DNA of 64,000 nucleotides. It comes from Thermodesulfobacteriota bacterium (lineage in GTDB: Bacteria > Desulfobacterota_D > UBA1144 > Nemesobacterales > UBA2774). The stretch covers positions 1,472,001 to 1,536,000 of the forward strand of contig OZ244197.1 of the NCBI GenBank assembly GCA_965216785.1, read 5' to 3'. The translations under genes and the position numbers were made by a program. The notes under the pieces are model-generated. The model had not been told where the DNA came from, did not search any database, and saw nothing but the letters and a program-made list of their open reading frames with translations. Within the stretch, counting starts at the first letter, position 1. The number at the start of each line of letters is the position of its first letter. Shown piece after piece: positions 46,873 to 54,785 of the stretch.

Positions 46873-47235
46873 TTAGGCTGATATCTTGATTTCTGTAATA
46901 AGCCCCGTGCAGGTGATTATTTTATCTAAATTTTCGTTCCTGGGATATAAATAGCGGTGCTCGGGTTTTTCTCCGCAACTGCGGCAAACTTCCTCCTCCT
47001 CTGATATATCAACCCAGATTGCGCAAGCGCCGCAGTAATCTCCCATCTCCTCATACCAGGCTAAATGAGAATACAAGAGCTCATTCAATCCTCTCTTGCC
47101 CAGGGTGGAAGCCCACTCAGTCAGGTCCTGGGTAATTCTCTCTCTGAATTTAGGCGGAACCTCAGACAGGTCGCCCGAATAGATTTGGTCTTGGTTAACA
47201 TAAATTTTACAGCTAAAAGACTTTTCGCCTGTCAT
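46873..47235 (-). CDS. Hypothetical protein with zinc-ribbon-like CxxC...CxxC
   Basis: YCGAC...VCRSCG; 120 aa, fills the gap on the operon strand. Confidence 0.65.
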   Translation of the reverse strand: MTGEKSFSCKIYVNQDQIYSGDLSEVPPKFRERITQDLTEWASTLGKRGLNELLYSHLAWYEEMGDYCGACAIWVDISEEEEVCRSCGEKPEHRYLYPRNENLDKIITCTGLITEIKISA

Positions 47236-47307: not shown

Positions 47308-49218
47308 TCAGTTGCTCATAGCCTCAGCGCCGAGCACGCTGGCCACAGCATCCTGTATCTGGTCCACTGAGAAGGGTTTCTTGATTATCTTGTACGAGCC
47401 TTCTGAAATCTCATCAGGAAGCTGTTCCTCTGAGCGTCCGCTTATAATTATCACAGTAGAGTTCGGGTCAATCGTTCCTATGTCTCTTAGTATTTCGACG
47501 CCGTCTTTTTTGGGCATCGAAAGGTCAAGGAATATAATGTCAAAATGGTTTTGCTTAATTAGCCCGAGAGCACTCTCACCGTTACCGGCTGTCATAACGT
47601 TGTGCCCCGTACTTGATAAACACTCCTTTATTATATCACGGATAAATTCTTCATCGTCCACGACAAGTATGTTCCCCTTTCTTCTAAGCTCCAGCACCTT
47701 CGCGCTCTCGACTTTTTGTCCTGTTTTAGTGCTGACGCTTTTGCTTAGAGTCTGCACATTTGGCAGGAGTATGGTGAAAGTGGTTCCTTTGTCAATCTCG
47801 CTGCTCACGTCGATTCGTCCGCCGTGGCGCTCGATTATAGCATAAATTACGGACAGGCCGAGCCCCGTCCCTGATTTTGTGCCTTCACTGAACTTTGTGG
47901 TGAAAAACGGTTCGAAGATTCTGGGCAGATTCTCACTGGATATTCCGCTGCCTGTATCTGAGAAGTCGATCCTTACGTTATTGCCTTCTAGTTTTGTGCT
48001 TATAGCTATGGCGCCGCCGCCCGGCATGGCGTGTTTTGAGTTAATTGCTAGGTTCAGGAAAACCTGCTGCAGCTCGCCCAAATTCAGTCTGATAGCCGGC
48101 ACTTTTTCGTAGTTCCGGAGAATCTTGATTCCCTCTGTTTCAAATGTGTGCTCGACTAGGCTAAGTGCGTCGTCAATAACGTTCTCTATCTGAGCGACCT
48201 GGAACTTCTCGCCCTTTTGCCTTGAGAAGCTTAGGAGTTTATTCACTATTTCGACAGCCCTATCTGAGGCTTTTTCTATAACATCGAGGTCTTTTCTCAC
48301 CCCCTCCATGTTATCTCTTGTAATCGCGAGACTCGTGTAGCCGATTATTCCCGAGAGTATGTTGTTAAATTCGTGCGCGACGCCTGCCGCGAGCTGCCCG
48401 ACGCCGGACATCTTAGCCGAATGGATAAGCTGCGCCTCGAGTTTTTTCTTCTCTGTAATATCTTCGGTCGCTACGATAACGCCGAATATCTCTCCTGTCT
48501 CAAAATCCACTAGCGGAGAGAGAGATACCTCAAGGAATTCATCTCCCGACTTAAGCTCGTGCTTAGTGGAATAGGAGGCTTCGCTAAGTATCTTTGGAAT
48601 AATAGTCTCAAAATTTATACCGTCTAAGAGGTCGCTGAGTTTCTCGCCAATGCAGTCCTTTTTAAAAATCTCCTTTGTCTTTGGATTCGCGCTCTGTATA
48701 ACAAGGTTCCTGTCAGTAGTGATAATACTTTCAATCGTGCTGTTAAGAGTGTTCTCAAGCTGACGGTTTCTTTCTTTAACTTTTTGTTCAAGGTTTGTGT
48801 TTAGCTCTTTTAAGTCGCTTAAAAGTCCCGTGTTCTGTTTGTACAGGTCGTATCTTTCAACAGCGTGCTCTATGACGCTTTTGAGTTTGCTGTAATCAAG
48901 CGGTTTGATAAGGTAGTCAAAGGCGCCGTTCTGCACCGCTTCCACAGCTGTTTCAAGAGAGGCAAACCCGGTCATTAGGATTACCGGAATATGCGGGTCT
49001 TTGTTCCTTATTTCCTCAAGTAGGTCTATACCGCTTTTTTTAGGCATTCTAATGTCGGAAATCACAACATCAAAAGACTTAACCTTTAAGAACTCGATTG
49101 CCTTCTCGCAGTTATTAGCGGCTAGTACTTCATAGCCTTCCTTAGTTAGGATGTCGGCAATGATCTTCAGAATCAGATGTTCATCGTCAACGACTAATAC
49201 CCTTTTAGTGTTGTCCAT
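47308..49218 (-). CDS. Hybrid kinase REC-coiled coil-PAS-HisKA-HATPase-REC
   Basis: VLVVDDE...SDIRMP...DYLIKP; AHEFNNIL; NLAINS, SDTGSG, FEPFFTTK, GTGLGL; ILVVDDE...LDLSMP...KPF; AGGAG RBS before ATG 49218. Confidence 0.93.
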   Translation of the reverse strand: MDNTKRVLVVDDEHLILKIIADILTKEGYEVLAANNCEKAIEFLKVKSFDVVISDIRMPKKSGIDLLEEIRNKDPHIPVILMTGFASLETAVEAVQNGAFDYLIKPLDYSKLKSVIEHAVERYDLYKQNTGLLSDLKELNTNLEQKVKERNRQLENTLNSTIESIITTDRNLVIQSANPKTKEIFKKDCIGEKLSDLLDGINFETIIPKILSEASYSTKHELKSGDEFLEVSLSPLVDFETGEIFGVIVATEDITEKKKLEAQLIHSAKMSGVGQLAAGVAHEFNNILSGIIGYTSLAITRDNMEGVRKDLDVIEKASDRAVEIVNKLLSFSRQKGEKFQVAQIENVIDDALSLVEHTFETEGIKILRNYEKVPAIRLNLGELQQVFLNLAINSKHAMPGGGAIAISTKLEGNNVRIDFSDTGSGISSENLPRIFEPFFTTKFSEGTKSGTGLGLSVIYAIIERHGGRIDVSSEIDKGTTFTILLPNVQTLSKSVSTKTGQKVESAKVLELRRKGNILVVDDEEFIRDIIKECLSSTGHNVMTAGNGESALGLIKQNHFDIIFLDLSMPKKDGVEILRDIGTIDPNSTVIIISGRSEEQLPDEISEGSYKIIKKPFSVDQIQDAVASVLGAEAMSN

Positions 49219-51739
49219 CTTCCTCTCCTTTAACGTCATTATTTTTATTGCTTGGGAGCTCTATTGTAAATACCGTGCCTTTCCCCTTTTCGCTCCGGAC
49301 GATTATCCTACCCTGGTGCTCTTCTATTATCTTATAGGCAATCGATAATCCGAGCCCTGTTCCCATGTCTTTCTTTGTGAAAAACGGGTCAAATATTTTG
49401 CTCAGGTCTTCCTCTTCTATACCCAAGCCCGTGTCTTTGAAGCTCACATATACATTTTCAGTTTCTTGGTTAATCAACATATTTTTTTCCCAACCGGTCT
49501 CTATCGTTAGGTCACCACCCTCGGGCATTGCCTGTATAGCGTTTACTATGATGTTAATAAACACCTGCCACAGCTGGTTAGAATCGGCCATTATGTCCGG
49601 TACGTCTTCTTTTAAATTCTTGATAAGGTTCACGTTGTTATCCGAGAGCTGTTTTCTAATTAGTACTACTACGTTATCAACTACGTTATTTACGTTTACC
49701 TTTTCAAAATGGGGCGGCTCTGCCTTTGAAAACTTAAGCAGGCTGTCGATAAGGGTGTTTGTTCTTTCTATTTCGTGCTTTATGTAATCCAGATACTCCC
49801 CGACTACTTCTTCGTTTTCATCGTTTGTCAGATAGGTGGAGAGGTAGTATCTCGCCCCCTCGATAATGTTGAGCGGATTGCGAATCTCGTGAGCCACTCC
49901 CGCGGCAAGCTGGCCGATGGCAGACATTTTTTCCGCATGAACCAATTGATCCTGAGTGTCTTTTAGCTCGGTGTTTGCAAGCTCGAGTTTTTTCGCATAG
50001 TCCTCGACAAGCTTGAATGCGAGCGCGTTTTCTACTGCGATTGCGCTCTGGTTTGCAAGCAAGCGGAGCAGCGTGATATCCATAGTCGTATAAGTGAGTC
50101 CCGATTTTTTATCTCCCAGAGCAATGAACCCGATCAGCTGCTTCTTAAAGAACAGCGGCATTATTAGAGAAGCGTCAAATCTCTTAAACTCGTTCATAAG
50201 CTCCTCTGATCGGTTTATGTATTTCTCGTCGGCTATGAGGTCTTCTTTGAATATCTCTTTTTTATACCTGTTGAAGCTCTCAACAAGAACGTTTGTGCTT
50301 TCTATATTTTTATTCCCTTGTATATCTGTATTATCGCTGCTGTAGTAAGCCTCATAGATCCCAGTGTCTTCGTTATAAATTGCGACAGTTACCGGGCTTG
50401 AGAACATAGTGCTCTCGATCACGCTGATGATCTTGTCTATGATCATATCTATACTCAGAAGAGAAGTCATAGCGTAGCTCACTTCCTCTACCGTTCTTCT
50501 GTAGTCATATTTCTTTCTAAAAAACGTTAGGTCCACAATTTCCTGTATACGGTTTTTAAGCGGATTAAGCGCAAGTACCAAGAAGCTGCTCATGATCAGG
50601 AAGAAAGCCGGGTTCTTCCAGCCGCCGTGCTGTGCGTAGGCCATGTTAAAGGTTAGGACCATAAGAGCGAACACTGCGCCCACTGTTCCGGTTAGCAGTC
50701 CGTAAGTGATCGTTTTCTGTATGATTACATCAATATCGAAGAGTTTATGCTTGACGATGGCATAACCAATCGATAGGGGAAACAGTATTACTGGCAGGGC
50801 CATTAAATTAAAAGGTATGTTTAACTTGAAAATTGTAATGCCTACAGCCGCCGCGGCGGGAATTATCAGACCCAGTAAGCAACCTAAGAAAATAATCTGA
50901 GCTCTTTGCTTCTCTAAGGATGATTGTGAACGAAGGAATGTGAATAAAGACGAAAGAGGGAATATTGCGGCGCTTAATAGTAGATATATCCAGATAGAAA
51001 TATAAAGGATTTTCCATGTGCTGTAGGAATCGAAGAAAATCATTATAAGAGCGTAGATAGCCAGTGATAATATTAGAAACGGCAGCGTTGCGAAGTATCG
51101 GGATTTTTCTTTTATCTTAGTATCCGAAGGGAAGATGAACATCAGGTAAATCCCAAACATAGGGCTGAAAATCATCGCGAAAAATGTAATTTTGTCAAAG
51201 TAGTATGTAGCCTGCGCGTCAAATGAACCCACAAACCATATGCCAAGCGCAGTGCAGAAGAGGAAAAACGCTTTACTGGCTAAATCATCGGGCTTTATGT
51301 AAATTACAAAAACGCCGATTGTAAAAAATACTACCCCGATTAGATAAATGACCCCGAAGACAAGAAGCAGGTCTTTAGCAGAGAGTTTCTGTACTGGTAT
51401 TGTAATGTCGAAGAAGCGGTTGTTTCTCTCGATCGTATAATCAACTTTTTCACCGACTGATAGCGTACCGATAATATTTTCAATATCCACAGGAGCGGAT
51501 ACTTCCTGACCGTTGATTAGTATTACTTTGTCACTGAACCTTTTTAGCTTATCGCCGTTTACGGTCGAGGGGGCGATATCAGTGATAACCAGGTTGTCGT
51601 AGAAGAAAAACCCCGGGTATGTTTTGTCTACCCACTTGAGCCCAAGTATGAAATTGGCTATACAAAAGCTAAGCAGCACTACTACTACGATGCCGAATAG
51701 GGGTCTAGAAAAATTTTCAGAATTCTGCTCGAACGTCAT
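49205..51739 (-). CDS. Membrane sensor histidine kinase: TM, PDZ-like domain, ~9 TM, GAF, HisKA, HATPase
   Basis: DKVILINGQEV...GEKVDYTIER (PDZ-like); about ten hydrophobic helices in total; LGDKKSG..Y...D...LANQSAIAVEN (GAF); AHEIRNPL; NIIVNAIQAM; DTGLG; GTGLGL. Confidence 0.9.
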   Translation of the reverse strand: MTFEQNSENFSRPLFGIVVVVLLSFCIANFILGLKWVDKTYPGFFFYDNLVITDIAPSTVNGDKLKRFSDKVILINGQEVSAPVDIENIIGTLSVGEKVDYTIERNNRFFDITIPVQKLSAKDLLLVFGVIYLIGVVFFTIGVFVIYIKPDDLASKAFFLFCTALGIWFVGSFDAQATYYFDKITFFAMIFSPMFGIYLMFIFPSDTKIKEKSRYFATLPFLILSLAIYALIMIFFDSYSTWKILYISIWIYLLLSAAIFPLSSLFTFLRSQSSLEKQRAQIIFLGCLLGLIIPAAAAVGITIFKLNIPFNLMALPVILFPLSIGYAIVKHKLFDIDVIIQKTITYGLLTGTVGAVFALMVLTFNMAYAQHGGWKNPAFFLIMSSFLVLALNPLKNRIQEIVDLTFFRKKYDYRRTVEEVSYAMTSLLSIDMIIDKIISVIESTMFSSPVTVAIYNEDTGIYEAYYSSDNTDIQGNKNIESTNVLVESFNRYKKEIFKEDLIADEKYINRSEELMNEFKRFDASLIMPLFFKKQLIGFIALGDKKSGLTYTTMDITLLRLLANQSAIAVENALAFKLVEDYAKKLELANTELKDTQDQLVHAEKMSAIGQLAAGVAHEIRNPLNIIEGARYYLSTYLTNDENEEVVGEYLDYIKHEIERTNTLIDSLLKFSKAEPPHFEKVNVNNVVDNVVVLIRKQLSDNNVNLIKNLKEDVPDIMADSNQLWQVFINIIVNAIQAMPEGGDLTIETGWEKNMLINQETENVYVSFKDTGLGIEEEDLSKIFDPFFTKKDMGTGLGLSIAYKIIEEHQGRIIVRSEKGKGTVFTIELPSNKNNDVKGEEDGQH

Positions 51740-51763: not shown

Positions 51764-54523
51764 TTAGCTAATAACCGGACTCTTGCTATAAATATCCCAG
51801 TCGGTATTAACCCTTGATCCTAATTTTTCGATAGCTCTTCTTGACGCTATGTTATCTTCCAAAATCCATGTCAATGCGGCCCTTTCGTATCCGTTATGTA
51901 TCATTGCTTCACATGCCCTGCCTAAAAGACAGGCTCCGAGCCCCTTTCCACGGAATGTCGGTGATGTACCGACAATAGTTACCGCTCCCTTGTGAATCTT
52001 TCTAAGCTCAAGCGGAATCTTGATAAGCTTGAGGAGTTTTGTCTCCCCCGCGAGATCTCTGAAGATGGCCGCATAGTCCGGGAACGCCCCTACAAACCCC
52101 ACGGGCTCGCCGCGCTGCTCCGCAATAAGCCAGAATTCGGGCTCAATCAGTGACTTGAAGTCCTCGGCGAACTCTAAGAGCTCTTCGTATTCAAGGGGGA
52201 CGTAACCCCATTGCTTGGCCAGTGAAGCATTGTACAGATCGGTGACAGTACGAACTTCCTCCGTCCACTTAGACTTATCGAGCGGTCTAATGCGGATATC
52301 GGACAAAGAGGGATTGTGAGCGTGTCCGTGTACAGTTTTGATATTCTCAGGAGATTTCAGGTCAAGTGTGTAATGCACAAGGTTTTTAATAGGCGTAAAT
52401 CCGGAGTTTTTGAAATACTCGTGGTAGTAGGGGTGAGTGTATATCTGGAGGAATGATGGTATGCCACCATAATTACTTGCAAGGAACCCTCCTCCGAACA
52501 GTCCGAACAGTCCGTTCACAGGGCCCCTTACTTCCTTACAGCCTTCAGAGTCCAAAAACTCACTTGCCTTTCCAAGTAGCAGCTCCACAGCCACACTTTT
52601 GTCGGGAAGCGCTTCAAAGAATCCTACAAATCCTGTTTTAGTATTGTGGTATCGGTTGAAATATTTGTCTACAAATGCGCTTACTGTGCCAACTAGCTTA
52701 CCATCTTCTTCAACGATGAACCTCTTGCCATAAACTTTTCTCTGGTAATAGTACTTGTTGCTGATTAGCTTTATCTGATCCTTGATTAGAAAATACGGTA
52801 CCCAGGCGGGGCAGTCTTTATAAACCTCCCAGGAAAATCTTACGGATTTTTCTATATCTTCTTTAGAGCTGATTTCTTTGACCGAGTATTTCTCTCCGTC
52901 CTCATAGTTAAATGTAAAGGGTTTATCTATAATCCCGTATTTTCTTCCCAACTTCTCAAATACTTCAAGAGTAGTATCCAAGTCTTCCTGAGTATGAGTG
53001 GCCATAACACTAACCCTGAAGCGCTCGTGTCCTTTGGGCACTGCCGGGTGAGGAATAGCGTTTGTGTATATGCCCTCTTCGTGCAAATTCCTGCTCATTT
53101 TTTTAAGGGTAAGCTCGTCACCAATCATGACGGGGATTATCGCGGTCTCGCTCTGCGCGGTATCAAACCCAAGGCTCTTAAGGTTTTCCCTCATATACCT
53201 TATGTTTCCCCAGAGGTTTTTATGGAGCTCTTTATCCGTTTGCATGACCTCTATGGCAGCAAGTGCCGAGGCTGCGACTGAAGGCGGGAAATTGGTGGAG
53301 AAGAAAAAAGAGCGCGTATAATATCTTAGGAAATTCACAACCTCTTTTGTTGAGGCTACGAACCCACCGACTGCCCCCAAAGACTTGCTGAGAGTGCCCA
53401 TGACGAGGTCGACTTCCCCGGGTTTCATTTGAAAGTAACTCGGTGTGCCGCTTCCCATCTCTCCGACGACGCCTGTTGCGTGTGCTTCATCGACCATTAT
53501 TTTGGCTCCGTACTCGTGAGCCACTTCCGTTAGCTGCGCCAGCGGAGCGATGTCTCCGTCCATACTGTAAACGCCGTCTATCAGTACAAGCTTGCCCTGG
53601 AAATTATCAATGTTTCTTTTTAGTACTCCCCTGAGGCTCTCTACGTCTGAGTGCTTGAATGTTCTGAAAGAGCCCGCGGAAAGAATGCAGCCGTCTATGA
53701 TGCTCGCGTGCGCGAGTCTGTCTATGGCTGCCAGGTCGCCGTTTCTTACCAGTGCTTGAATGCATCCGAGGTTTGTTACATACCCGCTAGGGAATACCAA
53801 AGCGTCTTCACAGCCTTTGAGCTCTGCAAGCCTCATCTCGAGCTTTCTGTGTATGTCGAATGAGCCTGCCAGAAGAGGTACCGAGCCCGCGCCGGCCCCG
53901 TATTTATCCATCATTTTCTGCGCGGCGCTGATGACTTTGGGATGGGCGGTCAGGCCTAGGTAATTGTTGCTGCCCATCATGACCATCTCTTTTTCTTCCC
54001 CGGTAAAATCATCCTCGATCATAACCCTGTTAGAGGACATGGACGTAAGCGGTCTTCTGTATCTGATATAGCCCTTCTCCGTCATATCGGTGCGATACTC
54101 CCAGAACACGTCTGCTTTCTTAAAAATGTCGGGGTCCGGATAGTCAGGGAAATCGGCTAGAGAGTAGTTGTCGGAATTGAGCTTGTTAGAGCCTGACTGA
54201 AGATATTTTTTTATTTTAGATCTGTCGGATTTGGAAATATTTACAAACTTAATACCGAGTCCAATCTGCTCTGAATCGCTCTTTACGGAGTGCACAGCTT
54301 CACAATATACTTTAACAGGGAAAGAGGATTCAGAGAGGTCCAGCTCTAAAAAGAGTTTAGAGCCCGGCTTATAGAGCTCTTGGGTCTCAACAAACATCCC
54401 GTCTTCCGATAGGTCTGTTGCGATACCAAAAACTGTGCCGCTTCCCCGAAGCAGTACCTTGAAGCTTGCATGAGTTCTTTCGAATCTCCTGCGCTCGCCG
54501 CTTTTTTCAATTAAAATACCCAC
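51764..54523 (-). CDS. PilZ / alpha-oxoamine synthase (SPT-AONS-CqsA family) / YghO-bCerS-like GNAT triple fusion
   Basis: PilZ RRFER...DLSEDG; GSNNYLGL, HASIIDG, DGVYSMDGD, DEAH, GTLSKS (PLP Lys); GNAT part AWVP, GFVGFFEA, RGPVN, PYY, WGYVP, FRGKGLG, WILEDN; GGAGG RBS before GTG. Confidence 0.9.
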   Translation of the reverse strand: MGILIEKSGERRRFERTHASFKVLLRGSGTVFGIATDLSEDGMFVETQELYKPGSKLFLELDLSESSFPVKVYCEAVHSVKSDSEQIGLGIKFVNISKSDRSKIKKYLQSGSNKLNSDNYSLADFPDYPDPDIFKKADVFWEYRTDMTEKGYIRYRRPLTSMSSNRVMIEDDFTGEEKEMVMMGSNNYLGLTAHPKVISAAQKMMDKYGAGAGSVPLLAGSFDIHRKLEMRLAELKGCEDALVFPSGYVTNLGCIQALVRNGDLAAIDRLAHASIIDGCILSAGSFRTFKHSDVESLRGVLKRNIDNFQGKLVLIDGVYSMDGDIAPLAQLTEVAHEYGAKIMVDEAHATGVVGEMGSGTPSYFQMKPGEVDLVMGTLSKSLGAVGGFVASTKEVVNFLRYYTRSFFFSTNFPPSVAASALAAIEVMQTDKELHKNLWGNIRYMRENLKSLGFDTAQSETAIIPVMIGDELTLKKMSRNLHEEGIYTNAIPHPAVPKGHERFRVSVMATHTQEDLDTTLEVFEKLGRKYGIIDKPFTFNYEDGEKYSVKEISSKEDIEKSVRFSWEVYKDCPAWVPYFLIKDQIKLISNKYYYQRKVYGKRFIVEEDGKLVGTVSAFVDKYFNRYHNTKTGFVGFFEALPDKSVAVELLLGKASEFLDSEGCKEVRGPVNGLFGLFGGGFLASNYGGIPSFLQIYTHPYYHEYFKNSGFTPIKNLVHYTLDLKSPENIKTVHGHAHNPSLSDIRIRPLDKSKWTEEVRTVTDLYNASLAKQWGYVPLEYEELLEFAEDFKSLIEPEFWLIAEQRGEPVGFVGAFPDYAAIFRDLAGETKLLKLIKIPLELRKIHKGAVTIVGTSPTFRGKGLGACLLGRACEAMIHNGYERAALTWILEDNIASRRAIEKLGSRVNTDWDIYSKSPVIS

Positions 54524-54640
54524 AAGCGATCCTCCAAAAAAGCCGTCAACTTTTAGGGTCTTCTTTAATATACTTAATAAACTTCTTGATGCCTAGGCGA
54601 TAATTATCCTATAATATTGAATAAAATGCAAGCGGTTCGC

Positions 54641-54738
54641 TCTTCGGTAGCCCAACTACCATAGGCGAAAAATAATTTCGCCCTTAGGCTTGAAGCTTTG
54701 CGTCCTATCTTTTCAGATAGTTTGCCGTTTCGGAATGA
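54641..54738 (-). ncRNA. Cyclic di-GMP-I (GEMM) riboswitch
   Basis: Minus strand GGCAAA-CUAUCU-GAAA-AGAUAG-GACGCAAA-GCUUCAAG-CCUAAG-GGCGAAA(UUAUU)UUUCGCC-UAUGG-UAGUUGGGC-UACCGAA: GAAA tetraloop on P2, canonical 11-nt receptor in P3, conserved junctions. Confidence 0.93.
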
Positions 54739-54756
54739 CCTCATGACCCACTATAA

Positions 54757-54785
54757 AGTTTAGTGCAACTTTTAAATACGCGCAA
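54757..54785 (-). promoter_or_regulatory. Putative sigma70 promoter upstream of the riboswitch
   Basis: Minus strand TTGCGC (54785-54780)-N17-TAAACT (54762-54757), placing the start just 5' of the aptamer. Confidence 0.45.

Follow-up and report, generated by a model that had tools for sequence, protein, structure and literature searches.

A c-di-GMP-I riboswitch aptamer in front of a gene for a PilZ–oxoamine synthase–acyltransferase fusion in Dadabacteria

We found that an RNA of the c-di-GMP-I riboswitch family lies directly upstream of a gene for a three-domain enzyme in the 64-kb window, by which we mean the whole stretch of DNA analysed. The enzyme joins a PilZ domain, an alpha-oxoamine synthase (AOS) and a YghO-like GNAT domain. 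The RNA and its position are conserved among relatives, c-di-GMP is its likely ligand, and several readings of how it might act on the gene are weighed below (Table 1).

The aptamer, its relatives and its ligand

A search with the Rfam c-di-GMP-I model (RF01051, GEMM-I), a check put forward with the original prediction, returned a full-model match on the minus strand at 54736-54643 with a score of 81 bits (E = 2.4e-14), well above the gathering score of 35 bits. This aptamer was the only Rfam match listed for the window. The original prediction had described it as near-textbook, and every element that it named is present in the sequence: helix P2 reads CUAUCU-GAAA-AGAUAG (54720-54705) and is capped by a GAAA tetraloop, GACGCAAA occupies 54704-54697, the tetraloop receptor is formed by CCUAAG (54688-54683) and UAUGG (54663-54659), and the UACCGAA junction is found as well. 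The distance from the end of the aptamer to the GTG start codon (54523) is 119 nt, where about 118 nt had been given. In its full-length model match, its G20 and C92, its tetraloop with receptor and its covarying helices P2 and P3, the RNA is the same as known c-di-GMP-I aptamers.

To place the aptamer among relatives, we collected 21 leaders, including G019 and two metagenome contigs that were added to the first set; these leaders come from kin and are not independent. A first scan of orthologues in Dadabacteria found the aptamer at 19 of 20 loci, the exception being a locus (L020) whose sequence ends 87 nt upstream of the gene. The aptamer stood directly 5′ of the gene in all 17 full-length three-domain orthologues from Dadabacteria with upstream DNA, and in genome G052 (L058) the gene behind it encodes a synthase that lacks PilZ, with GNAT on a gene of its own. 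A second scan found it at none of nine loci, four of which are truncated and five of which hold GNAT-less PilZ-AOS genes of other families; wider windows around those five genes lacked it too. In the alignment of 19 orthologous leaders, standard pairs filled 99.6% of aptamer cells and six pairs were changed on both sides, compared with 28-43% paired in slid controls. Junction J1/2 is 4 nt long in 15 of 21 leaders.

Several other arrangements were seen among these loci. The split form in G052 (L058:8330-13206) runs from riboswitch to PilZ-less AOS, a 553-aa gene and then a stand-alone GNAT. In G059 a riboswitch (L059:5874-5960) sits between a PilZ-AOS gene and a sensor kinase, a position from which it would control the kinases and not the synthase. 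The orthologue at L023 (G032) carries stop codons within the GNAT region, which suggests a frameshift or an assembly error. Copy number of the riboswitch across G001-G060 ranged from 0 to 17 per genome, and where no PilZ-AOS gene was found in a genus or family, a c-di-GMP-I match was mostly absent too; these genomes are kin and not independent.

We take nucleotides 54726 and 54647 to be the equivalents of Vc2 G20 and C92, an assignment made via the Rfam consensus and the Vc2 motif. These are pocket nucleotides whose roles are described in the accessible text of PMC6140456, and both are kept in all 21 leaders. The A at position 20 that marks cGAMP-type (GEMM-Ib) members is absent, with G in 21/21. 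The genome, a single contig of 3.1 Mb that is 92% complete, encodes four GGDEF domains, all of which carry Asp where Hypr cGAMP synthases have Ser, the position having been located by the Asn339/Ser348/Asp374 spacing given in the accessible text of PMC6456294. No Hypr-type GGDEF (Ser/Thr signature) was thus found among the four, and no match to a SMODS nucleotidyltransferase was found in this 92% complete genome. The invariant G20 and C92, the four Asp residues and the lack of a SMODS match make c-di-GMP the likely ligand, in agreement with the original prediction, which had read G at the position of Vc2 G20 as favouring c-di-GMP over 3′3′-cGAMP. That the RNA senses 3′3′-cGAMP, or is a vestige, is very improbable: some natural family members are bispecific (PMC6140456, accessible text), but G20 is invariant and neither a Hypr-type GGDEF nor a SMODS match was found in the genome, and a vestige would not be expected to show the strong purifying selection with compensatory changes seen in the aptamer.

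Seven c-di-GMP-I copies are present in the genome. The six others (L002-L007) lie at G000:C1:985665, 1802318, 3113739, 1671427, 2805880 and 231122. From their translations, the genes that follow these aptamers encode a lytic transglycosylase/SPOR protein, two large secreted proteins, a protein of >1900 aa, a Tat-type protein and pilMNOPQ. Two of the six have hairpin-plus-U platforms, and a sigma54-like TGGTAT-N5-TTGCAT, judged by eye against the consensus, lies upstream of the L004 aptamer at about G000:C1 3113880.

Table 1 Coordinates of the features discussed, numbered within the window
Feature	Position	Strand	Basis
Promoter P1, sigma70-like, TTGCGC-N17-TAAACT, predicted start near 54750	54757..54785	minus	Sequence; putative function
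c-di-GMP-I aptamer; G20 = 54726, C92 = 54647	54643..54736	minus	Rfam 81 bits and covariation
Aptamer 5′ strand (5′ strand of helix P1, J1/2, G20-C22), candidate switching strand	54724..54735	minus	Pairing prediction; putative role
Ungapped conserved 84-bp block, interpreted as a promoter or operator module in the DNA	54549..54632	minus	19-leader alignment
Promoter-like site P2, TTGCAT-N17-GATAAT, would bypass the aptamer	54603..54631	minus	TTGCAW/GATWAT with 17-nt spacer in 19/19 leaders
Genus-specific strand complementary to aptamer helix P3, possible anti-aptamer	54591..54607	minus	MFE folds
TTAA-N5-TTAA palindrome (54577-54565), which overlaps P3, the third promoter-like site	54549..54577	minus	19-leader alignment
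U-tract and Shine-Dalgarno GGAGG (54535-54531), predicted to pair with the aptamer 5′ strand	54531..54543	minus	Sequence, duplex
919-aa fusion: PilZ (aa 10-109), AOS (aa 179-521), YghO-like GNAT (about aa 547-915)	51764..54523	minus	Pfam, sequence, fold
Membrane sensor histidine kinase (N-terminal sensor region, GAF, HisKA, HATPase)	49205..51739	minus	Domain matches
REC-PAS-HisKA-HATPase-REC hybrid kinase	47308..49239	minus	Domain matches

Promoters, spacer and possible modes of action

The aptamer is likely transcribed from the promoter-like site P1, just upstream of it. A P1-like site with a 17-nt spacer occurs at the same position in all 21 leaders and matches the consensus at 7-10 of 12 positions, under a search pattern that was set after the alignment had been seen. 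The site at this locus is of the weakest type (7/12) and is absent from the list of the consensus scanner. The predicted start lies 19-30 nt before G20 across the 21 leaders. The scanner listed no terminator after the upstream gene, aroC, which makes transcription reading through from there another possible source of the aptamer.

We then considered the spacer between aptamer and gene, in which the original prediction had noted no obvious intrinsic terminator. The lone terminator-like match 3′ of the aptamer is a single hairpin of -3.3 kcal/mol (54642-54630) that is missing in the two nearest relatives. No terminator-like hairpin was found in 19 of 21 spacers, and one distant leader has a hairpin of -9.4 kcal/mol at which the built-in scanner finds no terminator. 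An intrinsic terminator was rejected on these grounds. A consensus RNA structure was also sought in the spacer with RNAalifold, which gave at most a lone 3-bp helix outside the aptamer. The expression platform, called unclear in the original prediction, is only narrowed by these two results.

The spacer does contain an 84-bp block with no gaps in any of 19 family-level leaders and with 39 of 84 columns invariant, compared with 0/19, 0/11 and 1/28 in the columns flanking it; this count omits two more distant leaders, L024 and L029, both of which lack the block. No clear second copy was found in the genome. Because it is conserved without pairing and without indels, the block reads best as a DNA module, either promoter or operator. 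Sigma54 and sigma28 readings, tried by eye against the consensus sequences, did not fit. The second promoter-like sequence that had been predicted, P2, is located within the block exactly where it was placed (54631-54603), and its pattern recurs in all 19 leaders with 8-9 of 12 matches, yet it reaches only 8/12 here and is absent from the list of the consensus scanner. At -12, P2 carries an invariant G that departs from the consensus, so an operator is a possible reading of the block. The -10 of P3 is TG-extended in 15 of 19 leaders; at this locus it has CC in place of TG and the site reaches 6/12 matches, P3 being degenerate in this genus. On the opposite strand, a promoter-like TTGATG-N18-TATAAT (54586-54615, plus strand, 10/12) points back over the aptamer, and its -10 appears by eye to be unconserved outside this genus.

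Our tentative preference, at somewhat short of an even chance, is that the RNA acts as a modest ON switch of translation, with the aptamer 5′ strand covering the Shine-Dalgarno (SD) sequence in the absence of ligand. The P1-driven transcript would carry the aptamer. With no ligand, the 5′ strand would pair over the U-tract and SD; with c-di-GMP bound, the strand would be locked into the aptamer and the SD freed. Transcripts that start at P2, or in most relatives at P3, would not contain the aptamer and so bypass it. Consistent with this model, the best partner of the 5′ strand in the spacer is the U-tract with the SD (-11.8 kcal/mol), a pairing in the best 3% of 639 RBS regions of the genome; in 17 of 21 leaders the strand finds its best partner at a site overlapping the SD. 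Opening of the SD is predicted to be 1.2 kcal/mol easier here with the aptamer formed. For the six other copies in the genome, the downstream partner of the 5′ strand beats shuffled sequences (fractions 0.027-0.22, combined p ~0.0009), and in two of them this partner appears by eye to be the 5′ arm of a hairpin that is followed by U residues.

The evidence against an ON switch is, however, substantial. The energy of SD opening in the apo form minus that in the holo form has a median of only 0.3-0.4 kcal/mol across 19 leaders, with 2-4 leaders above +1.4 and 2-3 below -1.4. When pairing was compared with background RBS regions, the whole 5′ leader placed one of 21 leaders in the best 5% (0.12 at this locus) and a 17-nt segment placed three of 21 there, with a median of 0.36. 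No covarying anti-SD pairing was found in the 21 leaders under two segment definitions. Cross-pairing of leaders showed that cognate 5′ strands and SDs pair no better than non-cognate ones; the 5′ strand is pyrimidine-rich by construction and would therefore pair with any SD. In the nearest relatives, L047 and L048, pairing of the 5′ strand is weak (shuffle fractions 0.68 and 0.79). A conserved hairpin before the SD was also sought and was seen in three of 21 leaders at p<=0.05.

An unlikely but serious contender is that no platform acts on the gene. P1 would then give a small RNA ending in the aptamer, whose stability depends on c-di-GMP as proposed for Vc2 or which stores the ligand, and the gene would be expressed mainly from P2 and P3. 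The short distance from the P1 start to G20, the spacer without consensus structure and the near-zero effects on the RBS in most leaders all suit this model, and both stability control and a storage hypothesis have precedent in the accessible Discussion of 10.1101/617340. It does not readily explain why the aptamer is directly upstream in every full-length orthologue with upstream DNA, why it is retained in G028 despite a swapped enzyme type (see below), or why other copies in the genome show platform-like partners.

Factor-dependent control, in which the ligand gates Rho termination, pausing or RNase access, is improbable. The spacer is unstructured, 65-77% A+T and free of intrinsic terminators in 19 of 21 leaders, as such control might require. 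Rut sites are biased to C over G, whereas 18 of 19 spacers contain no more C than G, and the strict conservation of length over 84 bp fits phasing at the DNA level better. More improbable still is an anti-aptamer specific to this genus, in which the strand at 54607-54591 would invade aptamer helix P3 as part of a lineage-specific switch: all three genus-level leaders show this strand paired in their apo MFE folds, and forming the aptamer costs 14-16 kcal/mol in them against mostly 6-11 elsewhere, but the pairing does not go beyond that of shuffled spacers (fractions 0.14, 0.36 and 0.11), it was not seen in the other 16 leaders, and it is tied to no change at a terminator or SD.

The fusion enzyme and its neighbouring kinases

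Pfam identified PilZ, aminotransferase class I/II and GNAT domains in the 919-aa protein, which has the only PilZ match in the genome. PilZ domains that bind c-di-GMP carry RxxxR and (D/N)xSxxG motifs. Both are intact here, as RRFER and DLSEDG, and R12 and R16 are nearly invariant in 19 aligned proteins. The original prediction had proposed a PilZ enzyme under double control. Its PilZ part stands, with motifs that are intact and largely conserved; we infer the double control itself, in which c-di-GMP would act once on the RNA and a second time on the encoded protein, via its PilZ domain.

By sequence and fold, the AOS domain is closest to Thermus ThAOS, Spt and Kbl, and the matches listed for a Foldseek search with the whole model were all to AOS-family structures. 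The domain falls below every NCBIfam cut-off: the Spt models score 373 (cut-off 640), 340 (500) and 295 (670), whereas E. coli Spt, used as a control, passes with 599 (500). ThAOS (PDB 7POA) is, with Kbl, the best match in sequence and fold, and these enzymes share a Val gatekeeper with the fusion, in which Val215 occupies the position of ThAOS V79 and Spt S102. According to the accessible text of PMC11906848, the gatekeeper is Val in Kbl and ThAOS and Ser in Spt. Val215, where Spt has Ser, is why we did not file the enzyme as Spt. Wild-type ThAOS still accepts Ser, so the Val215 enzyme may still use serine. Among 74 homologues the gatekeeper was V in 39, A in 23, S in 9, I in 2 and a gap in 1. 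Unlike Kbl and Spt, in which Arg follows the gatekeeper, the enzyme here has Pro at that position and is multidomain. A quick AOS tree had a single named reference for Spt, which sat on a long branch, and it left the enzyme unplaced.

The C-terminal domain aligned full-length with E. coli YghO (22% identity over 385 columns, E 2e-30). We take YghO to be the E. coli orthologue of bCerS. The enzyme likely catalyses condensation between a small amino acid and an acyl thioester, followed by N-acylation, which would yield an N-acyl aminoketone. A 778-aa protein without PilZ (P0075), Spt-like and fused to a YghO-like GNAT, has a Ser gatekeeper and scores 538 bits on NF047600 (cut-off 640); it is a candidate for a true Spt-bCerS fusion.

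The gene is followed by genes for two kinases (Table 1). Two kinases also come after the synthase in nine of ten distant loci, the membrane kinase within a few genes of it, the tenth locus (L061) being ambiguous. At 46873-47235 on the minus strand is a protein of a 110-120-aa type with no Pfam match, found after the two kinases in most loci examined. One genome, G028, combines an aroC that is 89-93% identical to those of five genus mates and a leader typical of the genus with a divergent enzyme and sensor. Identity to genus mates was 54-56% for AOS, 41-44% for GNAT and 35-37% for the sensor domain, whereas identity to G005 was higher for each, at 69%, 53% and 55%. Enzyme and sensor domain thus appear to have been swapped together, a pattern consistent with synthase and receptor moving as one cassette while the leader stays in place; the evidence is thin because this is a single swap event.

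The co-transcribed membrane kinase may sense the N-acyl aminoketone. In alpha-hydroxyketone signalling by CqsA/CqsS and LqsA/LqsS, an AOS-family synthase is paired with a membrane sensor kinase, and the present locus shares with both systems an AOS-family synthase that adjoins such a kinase. It differs in its added PilZ, GNAT and riboswitch, in its kinase architecture and in its score of 195 on the CqsA/LqsA model NF005526 (cut-off 428). It is conceivable, but on balance doubtful, that the operon is a signalling system whose synthase is gated by c-di-GMP at RNA and protein levels over a baseline from bypass promoters, whose product is the kinase ligand, and whose synthase and sensor are exchanged as a specificity cassette behind the fixed leader.

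Another possible, though again rather unlikely, function is that the fusion makes a membrane lipid of the ceramide type, as Spt with bCerS, and not a signal. Like the bacterial ceramide pathway of Spt and CerS/bCerS (PMC11324152 and PMC11087976, accessible text), the fusion combines an AOS with a YghO-type N-acyltransferase. The C-terminal domain is the only YghO homologue in the genome, the spt cluster of E. coli BL21 has yghO as a neighbour, the Spt-like P0075 carries the same GNAT, and a separate bioF-like gene adjoins a bioA-like gene elsewhere in the genome (names taken from reading the translations). The accessible text of PMC11324152 states that cerS is always in a different operon from spt, whereas here the two activities would be fused, PilZ-headed, riboswitch-led and equipped with a Val gatekeeper. 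No aasR/acpR/cerR cluster surrounds the gene, and the best CerR-like match, 27% identical, is elsewhere in the genome. The Val215 gatekeeper and the low scores on the Spt models also argue against a ceramide lipid, as do the GNAT, which was not found in five tested distant loci that retain the kinase, and the joint change of enzyme and sensor domain in G028.

Relation to Vc2 and wider meaning

The riboswitch type is already known and the promoter layout is tfoY-like. According to the accessible text of 10.1101/617340, V. cholerae tfoY has four promoters, two of which bypass Vc2. The predicted layout is the same here: upstream promoter-like sites would include the aptamer, downstream ones would bypass it, there is no intrinsic terminator and the RBS is distant. 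Vc2 is described there as an OFF switch that acts via an anti-RBS element and whose target is a regulator, whereas in the present leader the 5′ strand is predicted to pair with the SD itself, which would make an ON switch, and the gene behind it encodes an enzyme that carries a PilZ domain. The Cd1 and pilM types of c-di-GMP-I riboswitch use a terminator platform (PMC9262584, accessible text), which is missing here. The operon was not found in the open literature searched, including a search for PilZ with serine palmitoyltransferase and c-di-GMP; nor did that literature give a match for the ceramide synthase/GNAT, and the literature matches listed make no mention of Dadabacteria.

With seven copies in the genome, the aptamer alone is ordinary, and it is its context that matters. 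If the proposed arrangement is true, it would link c-di-GMP to the synthesis of an aminoketone lipid or signal and place two levels of control on one enzyme. It would also provide a second, comparatively tractable case of the puzzle posed by Vc2 and tfoY, in which a conserved aptamer is followed by bypass promoters and by no terminator. With the 21 natural leader variants, the mode of action of a riboswitch of this kind can be tested directly.
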